From NCBI GenBank assembly GCA_019244185.1, contig JAFATB010000006.1, positions 544,001-608,000 of the forward strand: a DNA stretch of 64,000 nt, in the 5' to 3' direction. The translations under genes and the position numbers were made by a program. Source of the stretch: Acidobacteriota bacterium. GTDB taxonomy: Bacteria > Acidobacteriota > Thermoanaerobaculia > Gp7-AA8. This document shows, one piece after another, positions 8,378-40,138 of this stretch. Positions within the stretch are counted from its first letter, which is position 1. The number at the start of each line of letters is the position of its first letter. Under the pieces are notes generated by a model, which was not told the DNA's origin, made no database searches, and saw only the letters and a list, made by a program, of their open reading frames with translations.

Positions 8378-9022
8378 ATGCGGCGGCACATCTTCATCGG
8401 CGACATCCACGGTTGCCTCGACGAGGTGCACGACCTCCTCGCGAAGATCGGCGTCACCGACTCCGACCGCGTCGTCTCCCTCGGCGACCTGACGCGCAAG
8501 GGTCCCAAGGTCGCCGGCGTGATCGATCTCTGGATCGCGCGCGGCTACGACGCCGTGCTCGGCAACAACGACGTCAAGCTCACCGCGCGCGCGACGCTCG
8601 TGGCCAGTCCGCGCCGCATCAAGTTCCTCCGCCGCCTGCCGCTCCATCTCGACTTTCCGAAGCTCGGCGTCGTGGCCGTACACGGGGGCGTGCTGCCGAA
8701 CTCCCGTTCGTTCGACGCGTCGCTCGTGCCGCGCCATGCCGCGCTCTCGCTCCGCCACATCCGCCGCGACGGCTCCGGAAAGTGGTCCAGCGTTCCGAAG
8801 GAAAAACAGGCGGATTCCGATCCATTCTGGGCCGACGTCTGGGACGGCGATCGCCTCGTCGTCTACGGCCACACGCCGCGGCGCGAGCCGCGCGTGCACA
8901 AGCGCGCCCTCGGACTCGACACCGGCTGCGTCTACGGCGGCAAGCTCACCGCCGCCGTCTTCGCAGGGCCCGAACGCTGGACGCTCGTCAGCGTGCCCGC
9001 GCGCCGCAAGTACGCCGACTGA
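8378..9022 (+). CDS. Metallophosphoesterase (ApaH/PrpE-like calcineurin fold)
   Basis: GDIHG, GDLTRKGP, LGNND, HGG, YGHTP, LDTGCVYGGKLTA motifs. Confidence 0.9.
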   Translation: MRRHIFIGDIHGCLDEVHDLLAKIGVTDSDRVVSLGDLTRKGPKVAGVIDLWIARGYDAVLGNNDVKLTARATLVASPRRIKFLRRLPLHLDFPKLGVVAVHGGVLPNSRSFDASLVPRHAALSLRHIRRDGSGKWSSVPKEKQADSDPFWADVWDGDRLVVYGHTPRREPRVHKRALGLDTGCVYGGKLTAAVFAGPERWTLVSVPARRKYAD

Positions 9023-9034
9023 AGCATCGCGCGC

Positions 9035-11269
9035 TCAGTGCTGTTGCTGCTGCTTCTTCCGCTTCTTCGCCTTGCGGCGGAACGAGCCCGGCCTGCGGAT
9101 GATCTCGTCGTACGGTCCGAGCCGCACCGCCTCGGCACGCGCGATCTTGATGAACGCCTCCTGGCTGCGCAGCGGCTCGTCACCCGGCACGCGGCGGCGA
9201 TACGTGCCGTCCGGCTCGAGCGTCCAGCCCTTGACGTTGTCGCCGAGGGAGATCGGGAGGATTTGGGACTCGATGCGGTGCACGAGCTCGGGATCGAGAA
9301 TCGGGAACGTCAACTCGATGCGGCGGATGAAGTTGCGCGGCATCCAGTCGCCGCTCGACACGTAGACCTCGGACGCGCCGCCGTTCGCGAAGCGGAAGAT
9401 GCGCGCGTGCTCGAGGAAGCGGTCGATCACCGACGTCACCCGGATGTTCTCGCTGTAGCCGCGCAGTCCCGGCACGAGACAGCACGTGCCGCGCACGAGG
9501 AGATCGATCTGCACGCCGGCGCGGCTGGCGCGGTACAGCGCCTCGATCACCGTCGGATCGACGAGCGCGTTCATCTTCGCCACGATCGACGCGGGGCGTC
9601 CCGCCGACGCGTGCTCGATCTCGCGCTCGATCATGCGGATCGTCCACGCGAGGTACTCCATCGGCGAGACGATGAACCGCTTCGGCTGCAGCGCCGGCTT
9701 CTTCGACGCGATGAGCTCCTGCACGCCGGCGACGCTGAAGCCGGTCAGCAAATTCATGAGCTGCGCCGCGTCCGCGCCAAACTCCGCGTCGCACGTGAAG
9801 AGATCGATGTCCGTGTACAAACGTCCCGTGATGGCGTTGTAGTTGCCGGTCGACACGTGCAGATAGCGCCGCAGCGCGCGCCCTTCACGCCGCACGACGA
9901 GGCACAGCTTGCAGTGCGTCTTGATGCCGACCAGGCCGTACACGACCTGCACGCCGGCCTGCTCGAGATGCCGCGCCCACGTGATGTTCTTCTTCTCGTC
10001 GAAGCGCGCCTGCAGCTCCACGACCGCGGTGACTTCCTTGCCGCGCTCCGCCGCATTCGCGAGCGCCTCGACGATCGGTGAGCCGGGGTCGGTGCGGTAG
10101 AGCGTCTGCTTGATCGCCACCACGTCCGGATCCTCCGCCGCCGCCTGCACGAACTCCACGACCGCGGTGAACGAGTCGTACGGGCGGTGCAGCAGGATGT
10201 CGCCGCGGCGGATGATCGAGAAGATGTCTTCCGACGTCGCCAGCTCGGTCGGGATGCGCGGGTTGAACGGCGGCTCGAGCAGTGCGGGATCGGGATTCTC
10301 GCGATAGATCTGCATGAGATCGCGCAGCCGCAGCGGCCCGTTCGCGATGAACACGTCCTCGGCTTCGAGCCCAGTCGCCAACACGATGACGTTCGGCAGC
10401 GCTTCGAGCGAGTCGCTCTCGACTTCCAGCCACACCACTTCGCGGCGCTCGCGGCGGCGCAGTTCCGTCTCGACCGACTTCAACAGATCCTGGACGTCGT
10501 CTTCCTTGATCGCGAAATCGGAGTTGCGGATCACGCGGAACGGCACCGTGCGCCGCAGCCGCAATCCGGGGAAGAAGCGGATCGCGTGCGAGGCGATGAC
10601 GTCCTCGATCGGCACGTAACGGCGCGAGTCGCCGAGGCGCACGAAACGCGGGAGCGTCTCGGGGATGCGCAGGACGACGACGATCTGCGTGTCGCCGCGC
10701 TCCGATTCGAGGACCAGCGCGAGGTTCAGCGCGAGGTTCGCGAGCAGCGGAAACGGATGACCGGGATCGATGGCCAGCGGCGTGAGGATCGGCTCGAGCT
10801 CGCGCCCGAAGTACTCGCTCACGAACGCGAGATCTTTCTTGCCGAGTTCCGCGACGCGCTCGATACGGATGCCGGAGTTGCGCAGCTCGGGGAGGAGCTG
10901 CTCGTTGAGACACGCGTACATGCGGCCGAGGAGATCGCGGCAGTGCGTGCGCACGGCGTCGAGACGTTCGGCCGGCGCAACCGTCTCGTGCCGCACGTCG
11001 GCGGCGATGAGGTCGCGGATCTCGCCGACGCGGATCATGAAGAACTCGTCGAGGTTCGACGCGGAGATGCTGAGGAACTTGAGGCGCTCGAGCAGCGGCA
11101 CGGAGCTGCTCTTCGCTTCGGCGACGACGCGGCGGTTGAATTCGAGCCAGCTCAACTCGCGGTCGAACAGCGGCAGCGGCGGCGTGGGGGCGTTCTCGCG
11201 CGCGGCGCGCACCGCGTCCGCGGCCACTGCCGCAACGGCGGCTTTATTTCCTTCCGGCACAGCCGTCAT
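9035..11269 (-). CDS. ppk1: Polyphosphate kinase 1
   Basis: RELSWLEFNRRV, SNLDEFFMIRV, LHRPYDSF, IKQTLYR, KTHCK (phospho-His), STGNYN, RFLEHARI, DWMPRN. Confidence 0.96.
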   Translation of the reverse strand: MTAVPEGNKAAVAAVAADAVRAARENAPTPPLPLFDRELSWLEFNRRVVAEAKSSSVPLLERLKFLSISASNLDEFFMIRVGEIRDLIAADVRHETVAPAERLDAVRTHCRDLLGRMYACLNEQLLPELRNSGIRIERVAELGKKDLAFVSEYFGRELEPILTPLAIDPGHPFPLLANLALNLALVLESERGDTQIVVVLRIPETLPRFVRLGDSRRYVPIEDVIASHAIRFFPGLRLRRTVPFRVIRNSDFAIKEDDVQDLLKSVETELRRRERREVVWLEVESDSLEALPNVIVLATGLEAEDVFIANGPLRLRDLMQIYRENPDPALLEPPFNPRIPTELATSEDIFSIIRRGDILLHRPYDSFTAVVEFVQAAAEDPDVVAIKQTLYRTDPGSPIVEALANAAERGKEVTAVVELQARFDEKKNITWARHLEQAGVQVVYGLVGIKTHCKLCLVVRREGRALRRYLHVSTGNYNAITGRLYTDIDLFTCDAEFGADAAQLMNLLTGFSVAGVQELIASKKPALQPKRFIVSPMEYLAWTIRMIEREIEHASAGRPASIVAKMNALVDPTVIEALYRASRAGVQIDLLVRGTCCLVPGLRGYSENIRVTSVIDRFLEHARIFRFANGGASEVYVSSGDWMPRNFIRRIELTFPILDPELVHRIESQILPISLGDNVKGWTLEPDGTYRRRVPGDEPLRSQEAFIKIARAEAVRLGPYDEIIRRPGSFRRKAKKRKKQQQQH

Positions 11270-33990: not shown

Positions 33991-35472
33991 TCAGCTGTTC
34001 GGGGTGAGGATATACGTCACCAGTCCGCCGTGGCGCCGCGTGGGATCGGCGACGAGGTGGAACTCCTTCCCGCTGACGTGTTTGATGCCGATGCTCAGAT
34101 GGGTACAGGTGCCGTTGATCTTGAGCTCATTTCCGTTGCCGGGAGTGAGTTTGCAGTCGATCTTGTCCCACAGGCTGTAGTAGTCGGCTTTGGCCATCGG
34201 GTCGTAATACTTCTTGAGAAGCTTGACCAGCACCGCGGCGTGGCTCGTAAAGACGAAGAACCCGTCTTTCTTGATGCCGTTGTATTCGATATTGCTCTTG
34301 ATCTGCGGATCGATGAACGTAGGGACTCTCACAATCGCCGACTGGTTCTGCGGGAGTACATAATCCGTCTCGGCGTCCACGCCGTACTTCTGGAGAATCG
34401 TGGCGAACGCATTCGCGAGCGTAATGCAGCTTCCGTAGCGGTCCAGTGAATTCGGGTTCTCCATGAAATCCTCGGCCTGGTCGTCGGTGCCGATGAACGC
34501 CGTCCCATTGACCAGCGCGGACGCAGAGTACCGGAAGCCATAGTTCGTGAATTCTTTGAACAGCCTGTCGACGAACAGCCGCAGGCTGGCCTTGTCGTTT
34601 ACATGGACGGCCGTGGATCCGTAATAGAGCTCGCCCTTCTTGCCTTTGGTCACGCTACGCGTGATGTACCCCATCGGATCGCGCTGCTGCCATTGAATAT
34701 TGCTCCAGCCAAGGCGCAGGTGCGTCAATCGCGTATCGAGCGTGGTGAGGTCGTTTTCGAGCGCGTTGTACTGCCCTTCGTTGTACGCGGCCCGATCGAG
34801 ATTGTTGAATCGCTGCTGGATCTGGACCAATACGGTCGGCGGCCGCATCCAGGAACGGTTCGTCGCAAAGTCATTGAGCGTATTCGCGATTTTCGTGCGC
34901 AGATTGTCGCGCAGCGTATTGATGCGCGTCTCCTGTTCGTTGTAGCCCTGCATGAAGCCGAGCAGCCAATTGAAGCGGTTGTATGTGAGCGGCTGGGCCG
35001 TACCCGGCGGGAGCCGCCGCGGCGGCGCGGCATCCACGCGCTGCACGGCCTGAATCGCCATCCGCTCCGCCTCCGCTTCCAGCATCGCATCCTGCACGAC
35101 CGCCACGCCGCTGCCGCTTACATTCCGCACGCGTCCCGTCCGCTGCTGCACGACGTGCGCGAGCTCGTGCGCGAGCGTATGCCGCCCATGCGGCGTGGCC
35201 GGATCGTACTGGCCGGCCGCGAAATGAATGTGCGAGCCGTGCGTGAACGCCTGCGCGCGGATCGCCTGCGCCACCGCGCTCGACGGATGGACGCGCACGT
35301 GATCGAACCGCTGCCCGAACGCCGCTTCCATCCGCTGCCGTACATCGGCCGCCAATGGCTGCCCACCCTGCACCGGCAACCGCGCCGCCTCCTGCGGCGA
35401 GAGCCGCGCCGGAACCTGTGCCCCGCGAGGAAACCGCCCTTGAATCACCGAGCCGTTCATCGGATGAGCCAT
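33991..35472 (-). CDS. DUF4157 (eCIS core domain) protein with putative Cys-His-Asp effector domain
   Basis: GQPL...RMEAAFG...VRVH...AQAFTHGSHIHF...LAHELAHVVQQ...LEAEAE; C-terminal GSCITLA...SHA...YDP; C-terminal half is more AT-rich. Confidence 0.8.
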   Translation of the reverse strand: MAHPMNGSVIQGRFPRGAQVPARLSPQEAARLPVQGGQPLAADVRQRMEAAFGQRFDHVRVHPSSAVAQAIRAQAFTHGSHIHFAAGQYDPATPHGRHTLAHELAHVVQQRTGRVRNVSGSGVAVVQDAMLEAEAERMAIQAVQRVDAAPPRRLPPGTAQPLTYNRFNWLLGFMQGYNEQETRINTLRDNLRTKIANTLNDFATNRSWMRPPTVLVQIQQRFNNLDRAAYNEGQYNALENDLTTLDTRLTHLRLGWSNIQWQQRDPMGYITRSVTKGKKGELYYGSTAVHVNDKASLRLFVDRLFKEFTNYGFRYSASALVNGTAFIGTDDQAEDFMENPNSLDRYGSCITLANAFATILQKYGVDAETDYVLPQNQSAIVRVPTFIDPQIKSNIEYNGIKKDGFFVFTSHAAVLVKLLKKYYDPMAKADYYSLWDKIDCKLTPGNGNELKINGTCTHLSIGIKHVSGKEFHLVADPTRRHGGLVTYILTPNS

Positions 35473-35535
35473 GATCCCTCGTCTCCGTCGTTCAGCGTCT
35501 CGGGAAGTAAGGAGATTTTACGACAGGGGGAGTTT

Positions 35536-35611
35536 TGGCTGTGGCGGGAGGGCTCGAACCTCCGACCACCGGATTAACAATCCGGCGCTCTACCAACTGA
35601 GCTACACCACA
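35536..35611 (-). tRNA. tRNA-Asn (GTT)
   Basis: Reverse complement TGTGGTG TA GCTCAGTTGGTAGAGC G CCGGA TTGTTAA TCCGG TGGTC GGAGG TTCGAGC CCTCC CGCCACA GCCA folds as a cloverleaf with encoded CCA. Confidence 0.96.
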
Positions 35612-36353: not shown

Positions 36354-37549
36354 AGCTCGGTTCCTTTCGTTTCGGGTAGGAGCCAGATGAGGACCCCGCC
36401 GAGCGCGAAGAACGCGGCGTCGGCGGCGAGGGAGAAGCGGAAGCCGTACGTCGCCGCCGCGGCGCCGATCGCGTACGGCGCGGCCGCGGACGCGAGGCGG
36501 CCGCCGTTGTAGCAGAAGCCCTGCGCGCTCGCGCGGATGCGCGTCGGAAAGAGCTCGGCGAGCATCGCGCCGAACAGCGAGAAATAGCCGTGCGCGAAGT
36601 AGCCTACCAGCGGGCCGATGAGCAGGAGCGTCAGCTTCGAGCGCGCGCCGAATGCGAACAGCGGCACCACCGCGGTCGCGGCGATCATGAAGAAGGTGAA
36701 CGCGGGACGGCGTCCGATGCGGTCGGCAATCCAGCCGAAGCTCACATAGCCGAAGAACGCTCCGATCTGCAGCACGATCAGCCACGCGGCCGACTTCGTC
36801 AGCGTCAGCCCCGCGCCGCCCTGCGCCACAGGCGTCGCCAGAAACGCGGGCAGCCACGACGTCACGCCCCAGAATGCGACGAGCACGCTGCTCGCGAGGA
36901 GCGTCGCCAGCACGACGCGCGCGCGGAATGCGGGGCCGAACAGCTCGAGCCAGCGCGACGGCTCGCGCGCGCGCCACACCTCCGGCTCTTCGACGTTGCG
37001 GCGAATCGCGAACGCGAGCACCGCCGGCAGCGCGCCGATGAGAAACAGCACGCGCCAGCCGAAGCGCTCGAGGACGAGCGCGGAAATGCCCGCGGCGAAG
37101 AGCGCGCCGATCGCCCACCCCGCCTGCATGATCCCCATCGCCTTCGCGCGATGTTGCGCAGGCCACGTCTCCGCGACGAGTACCGAGCCGCAGGACCACT
37201 CGCCGCCCATGCCGAGGCCGACCAGCACGCGCCACGCGATGAGCTGCCAGAGCGCGGACGACGTCGCGAGGCCCGCGGTCGCGGCGGAGTACAGCAGGAT
37301 GCTGAACGTCATCGCGCGCACGCGGCCGATGCGATCGGCGAGACGTCCGAAGCCGATGCCGCCGATCGCGCTCGCGATGAGCGCCACCGACGTGAGGCCG
37401 CCCATCGTCGACTTGGCGAGGCCGAACTCCTGCTGGATCGGCACGACGGCGAAGGTGAAGAGGAGGAAGTCCATCGCGTCGAGCATCCAGCCGAGCTGCG
37501 CGGCGAACAATGCGCGCCACGCGCGGCGGTCGACGTCGATGAAGGACAT
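36350..37549 (-). CDS. MFS transporter
   Basis: LDAMD, GRLADRIGR motif A, GLGMGGEW, AELFPTRIRA. Confidence 0.92.
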   Translation of the reverse strand: MSFIDVDRRAWRALFAAQLGWMLDAMDFLLFTFAVVPIQQEFGLAKSTMGGLTSVALIASAIGGIGFGRLADRIGRVRAMTFSILLYSAATAGLATSSALWQLIAWRVLVGLGMGGEWSCGSVLVAETWPAQHRAKAMGIMQAGWAIGALFAAGISALVLERFGWRVLFLIGALPAVLAFAIRRNVEEPEVWRAREPSRWLELFGPAFRARVVLATLLASSVLVAFWGVTSWLPAFLATPVAQGGAGLTLTKSAAWLIVLQIGAFFGYVSFGWIADRIGRRPAFTFFMIAATAVVPLFAFGARSKLTLLLIGPLVGYFAHGYFSLFGAMLAELFPTRIRASAQGFCYNGGRLASAAAPYAIGAAAATYGFRFSLAADAAFFALGGVLIWLLPETKGTEL

Positions 37550-37598
37550 CGCGGCGGAGTGTACAACGCCGCCGCGATGCCGGTTCAACGCGAGAGAT

Positions 37599-38011
37599 TC
37601 ATCAGGACGAAAGGGCCGCGATCATGGCAACCGCTCACAAGCGCCGGATTCAGGGACTGCACCGGCGGCATCTCAATTTGCATTCGAAGTCGGTTTAAAG
37701 CCGGAACATCGACAGCGGACCGCCGTGCGATCCGCCGAACAGCGCCGAATCTTACGCGCCGCCGCAGAGAACCGCGACAGCGATCAGGGCGCCGACCGCA
37801 AAACCATTCCAGAAGTCCGTGGCGGCTTCGCTGATGGGGGCGACGACGTTTTCCATTTCTTCGATCATGAGCATGTGAGTGATCTCCTTTTCCATGTAGT
37901 GGGCGATTCGATTGGGGGTGTAACTGCCGGGGACATGACAACCGGACGCCGAGGGGCTACTGCATCGTGGCGCTGAGGGTTGCCGTGATCGCGGCTCTCT
38001 CCTCCTGATGA
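37599..38011. repeat. 34-bp inverted-repeat pair (37599-37632 / 37978-38011) enclosing precursor gene A2
   Basis: TCATCAGGACGAAAGGGCCGCGATCATGGCAACC versus the reverse complement of the right arm TCATCAGGAGGAGAGAGCCGCGATCACGGCAACC (30/34 identical). Confidence 0.85.
37752..37874 (-). CDS. RiPP precursor peptide type A (copy 2): MLMIEEMENVVAPISEAATDFWNGFAVGALIAVAVLCGGA
   Basis: Manual translation; AAAGGAG RBS; paralogue of 39857..39979. Confidence 0.88.
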   Translation of the reverse strand: MLMIEEMENVVAPISEAATDFWNGFAVGALIAVAVLCGGA

Positions 38012-38015
38012 CTCC

Positions 38016-39242
38016 TTATTCGTAACGAAGACATTCGATCGGATCGAGCATGGAGGCTTTCCACGCCGGATACAGACCGAAAAGAATTCCGATGGCCGCG
38101 GGGACGAGGAACGCGCTGCTGACGGCCCACAACGGAATGGGACTGAACGAGCCGAAGAATCCGTGGCTGATCGCGCCGCCGGCCGCATAGCCGAGCGCAA
38201 CGCCGGCCGCTCCGCCGAGGAGCGATAAGAGCGACGCTTCAATGAGGAACTGCACCAGGATGTCGCGCGGCTTGGCGCCGACGGATTTCCGGATGCCGAT
38301 CTCACGCGTGCGCTCGGTGACCGTGACGAGCATGATGTTCATGATGCCGACGCCGCCGACGAGCAGCGCGATCGACACCATGCCGCCGGCCACGGCGCCG
38401 ATGAAGCGCGTAATGCCGGAGACGATGGAGACGAACTGCCGCTGGCTGAAGACGCGGAAGCCTTCCTGCTCTTTCGGTTTGAGGCCTTTGACGCGGCGTA
38501 ATGCGGCGGTGACGAGCTCCGCACCGTCATCCGCGCTGACCTTCGAGTCGATGCGCACCTGAAAGAACAGCTGATGGCGCTGCTCTTCGGTGAGCATCGG
38601 CAGGCCGGTGCGCAGCGGGATGAGGATCATGCTGTCGGGATCGGCGCCGAGGGTTGCGCCGCGTTCCTCCAGCACGCCGATGATCTCGAGTCCGAGAGAC
38701 GGCGTCTGAATGATCTTGCCGATGGGATTGCCTTTGATGGCGAGCTTCTCGAGCACCTTCGGGCCGACGATGACCACTTTGCTGCCGAGGCGGATCTCCG
38801 CCGGGACGAAATTGCGTCCGGTCTTGACGTTGATGTCGTTGAGCTCGAGATAGGTCTCGTCCGACATCAGCATGTTGACGGAGGTGGTGTGGCCGTTGGC
38901 CTTGAGATCGGTGCTCGTCAATGCGAGGGGTGTGACCTGGGTGACCTGGCGCACGAGGCGTTGCACGGCCTTCATGTCGTCTGCGGTCAGGTCGCGATTG
39001 CGGACTTTCCCATATTCCTCGAGCGGAACGTCGCCCGGCAGGAGAGGGCGGACGAGCAGCGTCTGGCTGCCGGCGCGCTCGATTTCCTGCAGGATGCTGC
39101 GCTCCATTCCCTGGACGAGGCTGACCACGGCGATGACGCTGGTCACGCCGATGACGATGCCCAGGGAGGTGAGGATCGAGCGCATTTTGTTCGCTTGGAG
39201 CGATTTGAGCGCCGCACGCAATGGCTCGATGAGGCCGAACAT
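38016..39242 (-). CDS. MacB/FtsX-family ABC transporter permease (YknZ-like)
   Basis: NKMRSILTSLGIVIGV, LLVGGVGIMNIMLVTVTERTREIGIRK, FLIEA, LDPIECLRYE; AAAGGA RBS before ATG 39242. Confidence 0.92.
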   Translation of the reverse strand: MFGLIEPLRAALKSLQANKMRSILTSLGIVIGVTSVIAVVSLVQGMERSILQEIERAGSQTLLVRPLLPGDVPLEEYGKVRNRDLTADDMKAVQRLVRQVTQVTPLALTSTDLKANGHTTSVNMLMSDETYLELNDINVKTGRNFVPAEIRLGSKVVIVGPKVLEKLAIKGNPIGKIIQTPSLGLEIIGVLEERGATLGADPDSMILIPLRTGLPMLTEEQRHQLFFQVRIDSKVSADDGAELVTAALRRVKGLKPKEQEGFRVFSQRQFVSIVSGITRFIGAVAGGMVSIALLVGGVGIMNIMLVTVTERTREIGIRKSVGAKPRDILVQFLIEASLLSLLGGAAGVALGYAAGGAISHGFFGSFSPIPLWAVSSAFLVPAAIGILFGLYPAWKASMLDPIECLRYE

Positions 39243-39291
39243 GGGATGAGGTCCTTTCTGTAAATTAATTGAGCGTTTGTGAACCCGAGGC

Positions 39292-39325
39292 CCCATTACG
39301 GCCTTCCGGAGAAGGCCGTAATGGG
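39292..39325 (-). other. Perfect 15-bp hairpin with C-UCCG-G (UNCG) tetraloop on the coding strand
   Basis: CCCATTACGGCCTTC-CGGA-GAAGGCCGTAATGGG; no U-tract follows. Confidence 0.75.
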
Positions 39326-39450
39326 ATGGCCGGAACTGCATGGCGATCCGCAGAAAAGAGCCGCGACCACGGCGATCAGCAACCCGTCAGCTTCACACCC
39401 ACAGCAAAACTGACGACGACTCGCCAAGGGACTCTTTCAGCCGAAGCCGA

Positions 39451-39573
39451 TTACGACGAGAGAGCCGCGATGATGATGATCGTCGCCGCGCCGGCGCCAG
39501 CACCCGCGAGCCACGTTCCGACGCTGGGGGCAACCACTTCTTCCATCTCTTCGATCATGAGCACGTTGTTCAT
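39451..39573 (-). CDS. RiPP precursor peptide type B (copy 2): MNNVLMIEEMEEVVAPSVGTWLAGAGAGAATIIIIAALSS
   Basis: Manual translation; AAGGA RBS; near-identical to 39647..39769 with mostly synonymous differences. Confidence 0.88.
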   Translation of the reverse strand: MNNVLMIEEMEEVVAPSVGTWLAGAGAGAATIIIIAALSS

Positions 39574-39646
39574 TGGAGTCTTTCCTTTTCTCTGAAGTTG
39601 GTGAAACGTTGTTGTTTAGGGACCGGGTCTGTTGGTGGACGACGGA

Positions 39647-39769
39647 CTACGAGGAGAGCGCCGCGATGATGATGATCGTCGCCGCGCCGGCGCCAGCGCC
39701 CGCGAGCCACGTTCCGACGCTGGGGGCAACCACTTCTTCCATCTCTTCGATCATGAGCATGTTGTTCAT
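39647..39769 (-). CDS. RiPP precursor peptide type B (copy 1): MNNMLMIEEMEEVVAPSVGTWLAGAGAGAATIIIIAALSS
   Basis: Manual translation; AAGGA RBS; core identical to copy 2. Confidence 0.88.
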   Translation of the reverse strand: MNNMLMIEEMEEVVAPSVGTWLAGAGAGAATIIIIAALSS

Positions 39770-39856
39770 TGGAGTCTTCCTTTTCTTTCTTTTAGTTAGT
39801 TTGTGAAAGGGCCCGAAATGAATCAATGCCCGTACTGCGTGTGAAGCAGAGGCGTC

Positions 39857-39979
39857 TTATGCGCCGCCGCAGAGGATCGCGCCCGCGATGAGCGCGCCGA
39901 TGGCGAAGCCCTGCCAGAAGTCGTTCGCGGCCTCGCTGATCGGGGCAACGATGGTTTCCATCTCTTCGATCATGACCAT
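39857..39979 (-). CDS. RiPP precursor peptide type A (copy 1): MVMIEEMETIVAPISEAANDFWQGFAIGALIAGAILCGGA
   Basis: Manual translation; AAAGGAG RBS; shared MIEEMExxVAP leader. Confidence 0.88.
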   Translation of the reverse strand: MVMIEEMETIVAPISEAANDFWQGFAIGALIAGAILCGGA

Positions 39980-40138
39980 GTGCGTAATCTCCTTTCTATA
40001 AGATGATGTTGCCGTACTGCCAAAACCGGGGTCCCGTACAACCTAGCGCCGCCAGCTTTACTGCGGGTGTGAGCGCTGCGATTGCCTTGGTCGCGGCTCT
40101 TTACTGCCGACCGGACCACGATTCGATTGATGCCTGAT

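Follow-up and report, generated by a model that had tools for sequence, protein, structure and literature searches.

The stretch of DNA analyzed here (hereafter the window: 64,000 nucleotides (nt) of contig JAFATB010000006.1, positions 544,001 to 608,000, from assembly GCA_019244185.1 of an Acidobacteriota bacterium) contains a gene cluster that lies on the minus strand throughout and encodes, in the order of reading, a fused M50-ThiF enzyme, a 156-amino-acid (aa) membrane protein, a Yip1/YknW-family protein, HlyD, the small precursor peptides preA, preB and preC, FtsX, the precursor preD, and an MFS transporter. With its M50-ThiF enzyme and two precursor types, the cluster appears to be a so far uncharacterised relative of the daptides, a class of RiPPs (peptides made by ribosomes and modified after translation). 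The precursor genes are set in two modules, one in the HlyD-FtsX junction and one in the FtsX-MFS junction, and each module is enclosed by a pair of long inverted repeats, which are the subject of this report. The signature enzyme of the cluster (42637-45006) joins an M50-type intramembrane protease, with a daptide-like HExxH, to a ThiF/E1-like adenylyltransferase, and is followed by the genes for the 156-aa membrane protein (42209-42679), which has no family match and is a neighbour of the enzyme gene in related clusters too, for the Yip1/YknW-family membrane protein (41407-42174), and for the HlyD-type membrane-fusion protein (40139-41410), the upstream neighbour of module 1. Module 1 comprises the beta-type precursor preA (39857-39979, 40 aa, C-terminus CGGA) as well as the alpha-type precursors preB (39647-39769) and preC (39451-39573), also of 40 aa each. 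The gene for a MacB_PCD/FtsX permease (38016-39242) separates it from module 2, which contains the beta-type, preA-like precursor preD (37752-37874, 80% identical to preA).

Module 1 is enclosed by a long-range stem (stem 1), whose 5' arm (40047-40125, minus strand, as are all features given here) begins 14 nt past the HlyD stop codon and is made up of an inner helix segment (40047-40072), an outer helix segment (40080-40113) and a weak extension to 40125, while its 3' arm (39332-39418) holds the partner segments of the inner (39393-39418) and the outer helix (39344-39377). The repeat search returned the outer helix as 34 nt with 85% complementarity and arms 702 nt apart, and the inner one as 26 nt with 81% complementarity and 628 nt between its arms. 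This confirmed the coordinates of both helices and the match counts (25/28 and 21/26) given in a first-pass annotation of the stretch, which had placed the three precursor open reading frames (ORFs) in a loop of ~630 nt. The same annotation had stated that the five differences in the inner helix become G-U pairs on the minus strand, and all five indeed proved to be transitions of this kind: the inner duplex is fully paired on the minus strand (26/26, -46.5 kcal/mol vs. -25.0 on the plus strand). In the outer helix, 29/34 positions form Watson-Crick pairs, or 30/34 when one G-U on the mRNA strand is counted, and the five mismatches are divided into one G-U on the minus strand, one G-U on the plus strand and three transversions. 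The pairing of stem 1 is far beyond chance, with an ungapped pairing score of 24 (100 shuffles: mean 10.9, maximum 17.5), and the 5.3-Mb genome has only ~12 distinct loci with long-range inverted repeats of this strength. When the minus strand of 39330-40125 was folded, a check that the first-pass annotation had proposed, the minimum free energy structure kept stem 1 (-326.4 vs. -300.1 +/- 9.4, z -2.8, 20 shuffles), and the stem pairs had probabilities of 0.85 to 0.98 when 2681 nt were folded together; in these models, stem 1 is thermodynamically dominant on the mRNA strand.

Around preD, a second stem (stem 2) is formed by a 5' arm (37978-38014), whose start lies 1 nt past the stop codon of FtsX (38016-38018) and whose sequence has its homologue in the outer helix of stem 1, together with a 3' arm (37596-37632). 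The arms are 37 nt long, 86% complementary and separated by a loop of 345 nt; 32 of their positions form Watson-Crick pairs, 33 with one G-U, and the stem dominates the fold of its region (z -3.95, 100 shuffles). The two stems are paralogous, as their 5' arms have a common core of ~21 nt and their 3' arms the complement of this core. Across the 34 pairs that could be aligned between stem 1 and stem 2, 21 are identical in both, five have been altered on both sides and are Watson-Crick pairs in both stems, two have been altered on one side with a G-U keeping the pairing, and two are mismatched in one stem and, through a double change, paired in the other, with three pairs formed in one stem only and one position mismatched in both. 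These pair-by-pair classes, including the five compensatory double changes, point to pairing having been maintained during the divergence of the two modules.

The layout of the modules is the same in both: an upstream stop codon, the 5' arm, a leader with a Shine-Dalgarno sequence, the precursor gene or genes, the 3' arm, a local hairpin and the next gene. The arms are wholly intergenic, as they start 1-14 nt past the upstream stop codon and end ahead of the hairpin and the ribosome-binding site of the next gene. The hairpin outside the 3' arm of stem 1 (39292-39325) has a perfect 15-bp helix (-34.0 kcal/mol with flanks) and lies 49 nt before the FtsX start, and the one outside the 3' arm of stem 2 (37547-37579) has a 14-bp helix (-34.6 kcal/mol with flanks) and overlaps the probable start codon of the MFS gene. 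Within module 1, preB and preC are recent tandem duplicates (39449-39784), the repeat being 140 nt long, its copies 95% identical and its period 196 nt. At 39493-39534 and 39689-39730, this tandem repeat interrupts the short-read contigs of run X1. The ORF of preD opens at ATG 37895, upstream of an AAGGAG Shine-Dalgarno sequence; judged by this sequence and by the alignment with preA, the likely start codon is ATG 37874, which gives a product of 40 aa.

Related clusters were sought through the fused enzyme, for which 42 full or near-full homologues were present in the protein collection (37 of them aligned), and genome as well as metagenome contigs were scanned. Named homologues are mostly from Acidobacteria, and Firmicutes and Actinobacteria have fused forms that are more distant. 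Of the 24 close loci examined, 8 of which do not cover the full upstream side of the enzyme gene, 12 have two or three precursors immediately upstream of M50-ThiF, i.e., all relatives with at least two precursors (12/12), and one precursor stands at a contig edge in 2 further loci; a motif scan across all loci found precursors at no other position, and no precursor was found in L095 and L015, each with more than 1.3 kb of upstream sequence. In the four relatives that cover the HlyD-FtsX junction, the two genes overlap (ATGA) in two and are separated by 5 to ~20 nt in the other two, compared with a gap of 896 nt in the window. Coupling of HlyD and FtsX is, by this comparison, probably ancestral, and because the precursors of the relatives lie upstream of M50-ThiF and their HlyD and FtsX genes abut, the stem-bounded modules of the window are derived insertions into formerly coupled junctions. 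Outside these clusters, searches for the precursors or M50-ThiF gave nothing in other genomes of the same family (0/123) or in samples of the class (0/400) and the phylum (0/400), and the DNA encoding P0002-P0004 (~70% identical proteins) was absent from the collections scanned.

A strong local hairpin (-19 to -38 kcal/mol) stands between the last precursor and the enzyme gene in 12/12 relatives, so that the usual RiPP hairpin after the last precursor is present in these relatives and in both window modules. The enclosing long-range stem is additional to it and was found only in the window (twice) and in one relative, L098. This distribution was obtained from an ungapped pairing scan of the same 12 relatives against shuffles, which replaced RNAduplex on long flanks, as the latter gave uninformative spanning duplexes. 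In L098 the enclosing stem is clear (score 26.5 vs. a shuffle maximum of 15.0) and surrounds two precursors at the operon head with arms of 27-39 nt (at the DNA level 27 nt, 89% complementary, with a 403-nt loop), after which a second strong hairpin follows. Its sequence is unrelated to the window arms, by which measure it is an independent analogue of the window stems.

Further evidence bears on whether the repeats act at the RNA level. With regard to strand, the stem 1 duplex is more stable on the mRNA strand by 31 kcal/mol (-116.0 vs. -85.1), and the L098 stem is more stable in the sense orientation by 13 (-50.1 vs. -36.8 kcal/mol). With regard to conservation, run X4 (a soil metagenome) contains a ~96%-identical strain with the same module architecture over 37560-40160; no indel is present in any of its arms, and the 40 differences listed (of 196) all lie outside the arms, 8 substitutions and 4 indels among them being in the adjacent 74 nt of the non-coding loop of module 2 (37676-37749). 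Judging from the order of these 40 of 196 differences, the segments 37560-37675 and 40008-40160, which cover two arms, appear to be free of substitutions. The contigs of X4, X5, and X6 cover the stretch in part. A 6-nt insertion in the X4 strain (behind 38017) separates the FtsX stop codon from the 5' arm of stem 2.

From these observations, the best reading of the inverted repeats is that they are the halves of long-range RNA stems ("paired termini" or processing stalks) and a selected RNA structure, to which we give an even chance. Several findings weigh against it. Stem 2 is strand-neutral (-58.7 kcal/mol for the mRNA vs. -60.2 for the antisense strand; -100.3 vs. -101.2 when extended), and the plus strand folds into stem 1 too (z -2.1). 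The selection on RNA structure that the first-pass annotation had read from the G-U pairs finds support in the inner helix of stem 1, where all five differences are of this type, and is not borne out in the other window helices, as the outer helix is unbiased and the mismatches of the three window helices taken together (7 G-U on the mRNA strand, 3 on the antisense strand, and 5 transversions) are not significantly skewed; with L098 added, the counts become 9 sense vs. 3 antisense (one-sided binomial ~0.07) for arms defined at the DNA level, a restriction made because the ungapped scan favours sense-strand G-U pairs. Strand-specific evidence for RNA is mixed: the inner helix of stem 1 and L098 provide it strongly, and stem 2 provides none. 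The 40 of the 196 X4 differences that are listed bear on two of the four arms only, the 5' arm of stem 1 and the 3' arm of stem 2, and among the runs searched for the stretch, none on record as RNA contains it. The first-pass annotation had further named a lack of such repeats in homologous clusters as a sign against its proposal, and apart from L098 they are largely lacking: the enclosing-stem score is within the shuffle range in 10/12 relatives and marginal in L094 (17.5 vs. a shuffle maximum of 15.5), which means that the stem is neither conserved in the family nor needed by it, and homologues of the window arms themselves were found neither in 22 related loci nor in the sequence upstream of the enzyme gene. 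Arm matches in relatives were 11-17 nt long and at chance level, and one of them, an 11-mer upstream of M50-ThiF (E = 3.4), was dropped. Finally, the homology between the two modules fades approximately at the outer ends of the arms, as would also be expected of a DNA element with inverted repeats at its ends.

The repeats could instead be a DNA-level feature, either terminal inverted repeats or scars of recombination, belonging to a small cassette by which the precursor genes were brought from the operon head into the two junctions and which was duplicated as a unit, with RNA pairing as a by-product. Beyond the fading homology, this would fit the insertion of the modules relative to all relatives, the homologous arms on two modules in two different junctions, and the strand neutrality of both stem 2 and stem 1's outer helix. 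A short cargo with terminal inverted repeats in intergenic sites resembles a miniature inverted-repeat transposable element (MITE) or a mobile insertion cassette. Unlike a MITE, the modules have no target-site duplications (no direct repeat was present beside either arm pair in the flanking sequence read), no other copies in the genome, and no cognate transposase or recombinase in the scan of 20 neighbouring proteins encoded between 24243 and 51544 (part of the window ORFs). At up to two mismatches the core motif occurs at the four arms alone in 5.3 Mb, three-mismatch matches are as many as with a reversed-pattern control, a BLAST search of the own genome with an arm recovered its partner alone, and the plasmid and phage collections held no match to the arms. 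The arms are also long (37 to ~79 nt) and imperfect, they appear conserved in X4 while the loop diverges (in the 40 of 196 differences listed), and five compensatory double changes would be unexpected for ends that fit one transposase, so that we hold a DNA cassette to be unlikely. An invertible switch, in which the repeats would act as recombination sites toggling precursor expression, shares with it the short segments flanked by inverted repeats and the missing recombinase among the neighbours scanned, and we rate it as highly improbable, as the repeats are matched only to 81-86% and a promoter scan of 37300-45600 gave 0 promoter-like sites vs. 1.2 expected. As to inversion or excision at the repeats, which the first-pass annotation had named as a sign against its proposal, the contigs of 4 runs showed no strand-changing, inversion or excision joint, a weak negative, since rare forms drop out of contigs.

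Two further explanations accept the arms as they are and give them other roles or none. RNA stems that are never cut might loop out the cassettes and bring the HlyD stop and the FtsX start, as well as the FtsX stop and the next gene, together again, thereby insulating the transporter genes or protecting the whole polycistronic RNA. The overlap or abutting of HlyD and FtsX in 4/4 relatives and the position of the stem 1 base 14 nt past the HlyD stop would suit such rejoining, and RNAs with engineered paired termini escaped cleavage by RNase III (PMC1635301), a point that counts against release by RNase III as well. With ~90 nt and a -34 kcal/mol hairpin between the stem base and the FtsX start, which is too far for classical coupling, and with a stem in L098 even though its precursors head the operon, uncut stems seem quite improbable to us. 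We are just as sceptical of the arms being a neutral relic of an inverted duplication without present function: they are imperfect and absent in 10/12 relatives (one more being marginal), as a relic might be, but two paralogous stems still pair after five double changes, the arms sit exactly at gene boundaries, and in X4 they are free of listed differences (40 of 196) next to the 8 substitutions and 4 indels of 37676-37749.

If the repeats are selected RNA stems, they would most likely set the precursor message apart within the mRNA and stabilize it. Clusters for RiPPs and bacteriocins require precursor in large excess over enzyme, and the usual solution is to place the precursor first, followed by a hairpin. 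In the relatives, a promoter, precursors at the operon head and the strong 3' hairpin can yield a precursor message that is short and abundant, before the enzymes are reached. This head-of-operon design would be unworkable in the window, since its precursors are located mid-operon, in the junctions HlyD-FtsX and FtsX-MFS of the transporter part, and here the stems may recreate a discrete precursor-only RNA. In a minus-strand operon transcript, which would require co-transcription of the whole set, stem 1 would bracket module 1 (preA, preB, and preC in the 628-nt loop) and stem 2 would bracket module 2 (preD in the 345-nt loop). The enclosed RNA might be released by RNase III cutting both arms in the fashion of an rRNA-processing stalk, or by exonucleases that trim up to the stem base; the base-paired 5' and 3' ends would then protect the released precursor RNA, the local hairpin outside each 3' arm may cap the downstream message and shield its new 5' end, and a change in the peptide-to-enzyme ratio would be the expected outcome. 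The genome encodes an RNase III (TIGR02191, 242 bits vs. a cut-off of 166, C10:174327-174983), and both stems place a duplex of ~20 bp or more around an RNA, as is typical of RNase III-type duplexes; we regard release by this enzyme as plausible, though at well below even odds. On the same models, both inverted repeats would give an RNA with double-stranded ends. Tentatively, and with somewhat more confidence than we have in RNase III, the unit of 5' arm, precursor(s), 3' arm and hairpin may be viewed as a self-contained, portable RNA expression module that yields an excised, end-paired and long-lived message anywhere in an operon, comparable to the release of rRNAs from theirs, having been duplicated here and having arisen independently in L098.

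The window stems are of the kinds known as processing stalks, paired termini and long-range RNase III duplexes, applied here to peptide-precursor genes, and the literature collection searched yielded no case of RiPP precursor genes with enclosing stems or with a link to RNase III. Long-range intramolecular mRNA duplexes are cleaved by RNase III in Bacillus subtilis, and the accessible part of that study does not describe the bracketing of whole small genes or of repeated modules (PMC11780869); the organism and the class of genes also differ from ours. Engineered inverted repeats flanking an RNA gave double-stranded termini and a longer RNA half-life in Escherichia coli, in synthetic antisense RNAs whose stabilization is independent of RNase III (PMC1635301), whereas the window stems are natural. 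In rRNA operons, the stalks flanking 16S and 23S rRNA are cut by RNase III (PMC6582327). Like these stalks, the window stems consist of complementary segments hundreds to thousands of nt apart that enclose an RNA within a polycistronic transcript, with the difference that a stalk releases rRNA and the window stems enclose a translated message for 40-aa peptides, whose cleavage is putative. No 16S rRNA was present in the assembly. The hok mRNA of hok/sok systems is another message for a small hydrophobic membrane peptide that is closed, and thereby made stable, by fold-back pairing of its 5' and 3' ends. The pairing also blocks translation in hok, whereas the ribosome-binding sites of the window precursors lie in the loop, outside the stems.

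Should the stems indeed release a stable precursor message from mid-operon, they would represent a second natural solution to the need for excess precursor, and at the same time a natural counterpart of the engineered RNA-stabilizing design. They would also help to recognize precursor genes that have changed place, and could serve as a compact part with which expression is tuned inside synthetic operons.

The class assignment of the cluster rests on the following features. Both precursor types share the leader MIEE(M/L)E..VAP and contain Cys in their C-termini; the alpha-type precursors have a short hydrophobic core and end in FCS, CSS or LSS, and the beta-type precursors end in CGGA or GC. 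The precursors are weakly MpaA2-like and reach 16-18 bits with NF041806 (MpaA-type precursor), below the cut-off of 40; the protease half is daptide-protease-like, and the cluster protease scores 228 bits with NF041824 (daptide intramembrane HExxH protease), below the cut-off of 300. The daptide tailoring enzymes are absent from the cluster, and the main text of the daptide papers mentions neither ThiF nor M50. On these sequence similarities, the cluster resembles a daptide cluster and is not a member of that class. A candidate promoter before preA (TTGGCA-17-TATAGA) was rejected, as transcription would begin within the Shine-Dalgarno sequence, and the 4227 Rfam models gave 0 matches at E <= 1 in 36500-46000.

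Among the transporter genes, we take the YknW-like, HlyD and FtsX genes to resemble the yknWXYZ set of B. subtilis; an ABC ATPase gene between HlyD and FtsX is present neither in the window (38016-41410) nor in the relatives L010, L090, and L091. The region 33991-35611, some 2 kb downstream of the cluster, encodes a 493-aa eCIS_core-domain protein next to a tRNA-Asn gene (35536-35611). Long inverted repeats near other clusters were judged to be unrelated to the stems: those of L026 lie inside a gene, those of L131 and L017 are less clear-cut and were likewise set aside, and those of L094 stem from an inverted gene duplication. The latter (8946-9869) have arms of up to 121 nt, which correspond to a GatB/YqeY-like gene present in two copies that face each other, 3 kb downstream of the related cluster and unrelated to the precursors. 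Elsewhere in the own genome, a 50-nt inverted repeat surrounds a 120-aa ORF (C2:178721-179174), whose product is presumably a four-helix-bundle protein of the '23S rRNA intervening-sequence' type, and a member of the same repeat family occurs without the ORF at C12:146268-146550.

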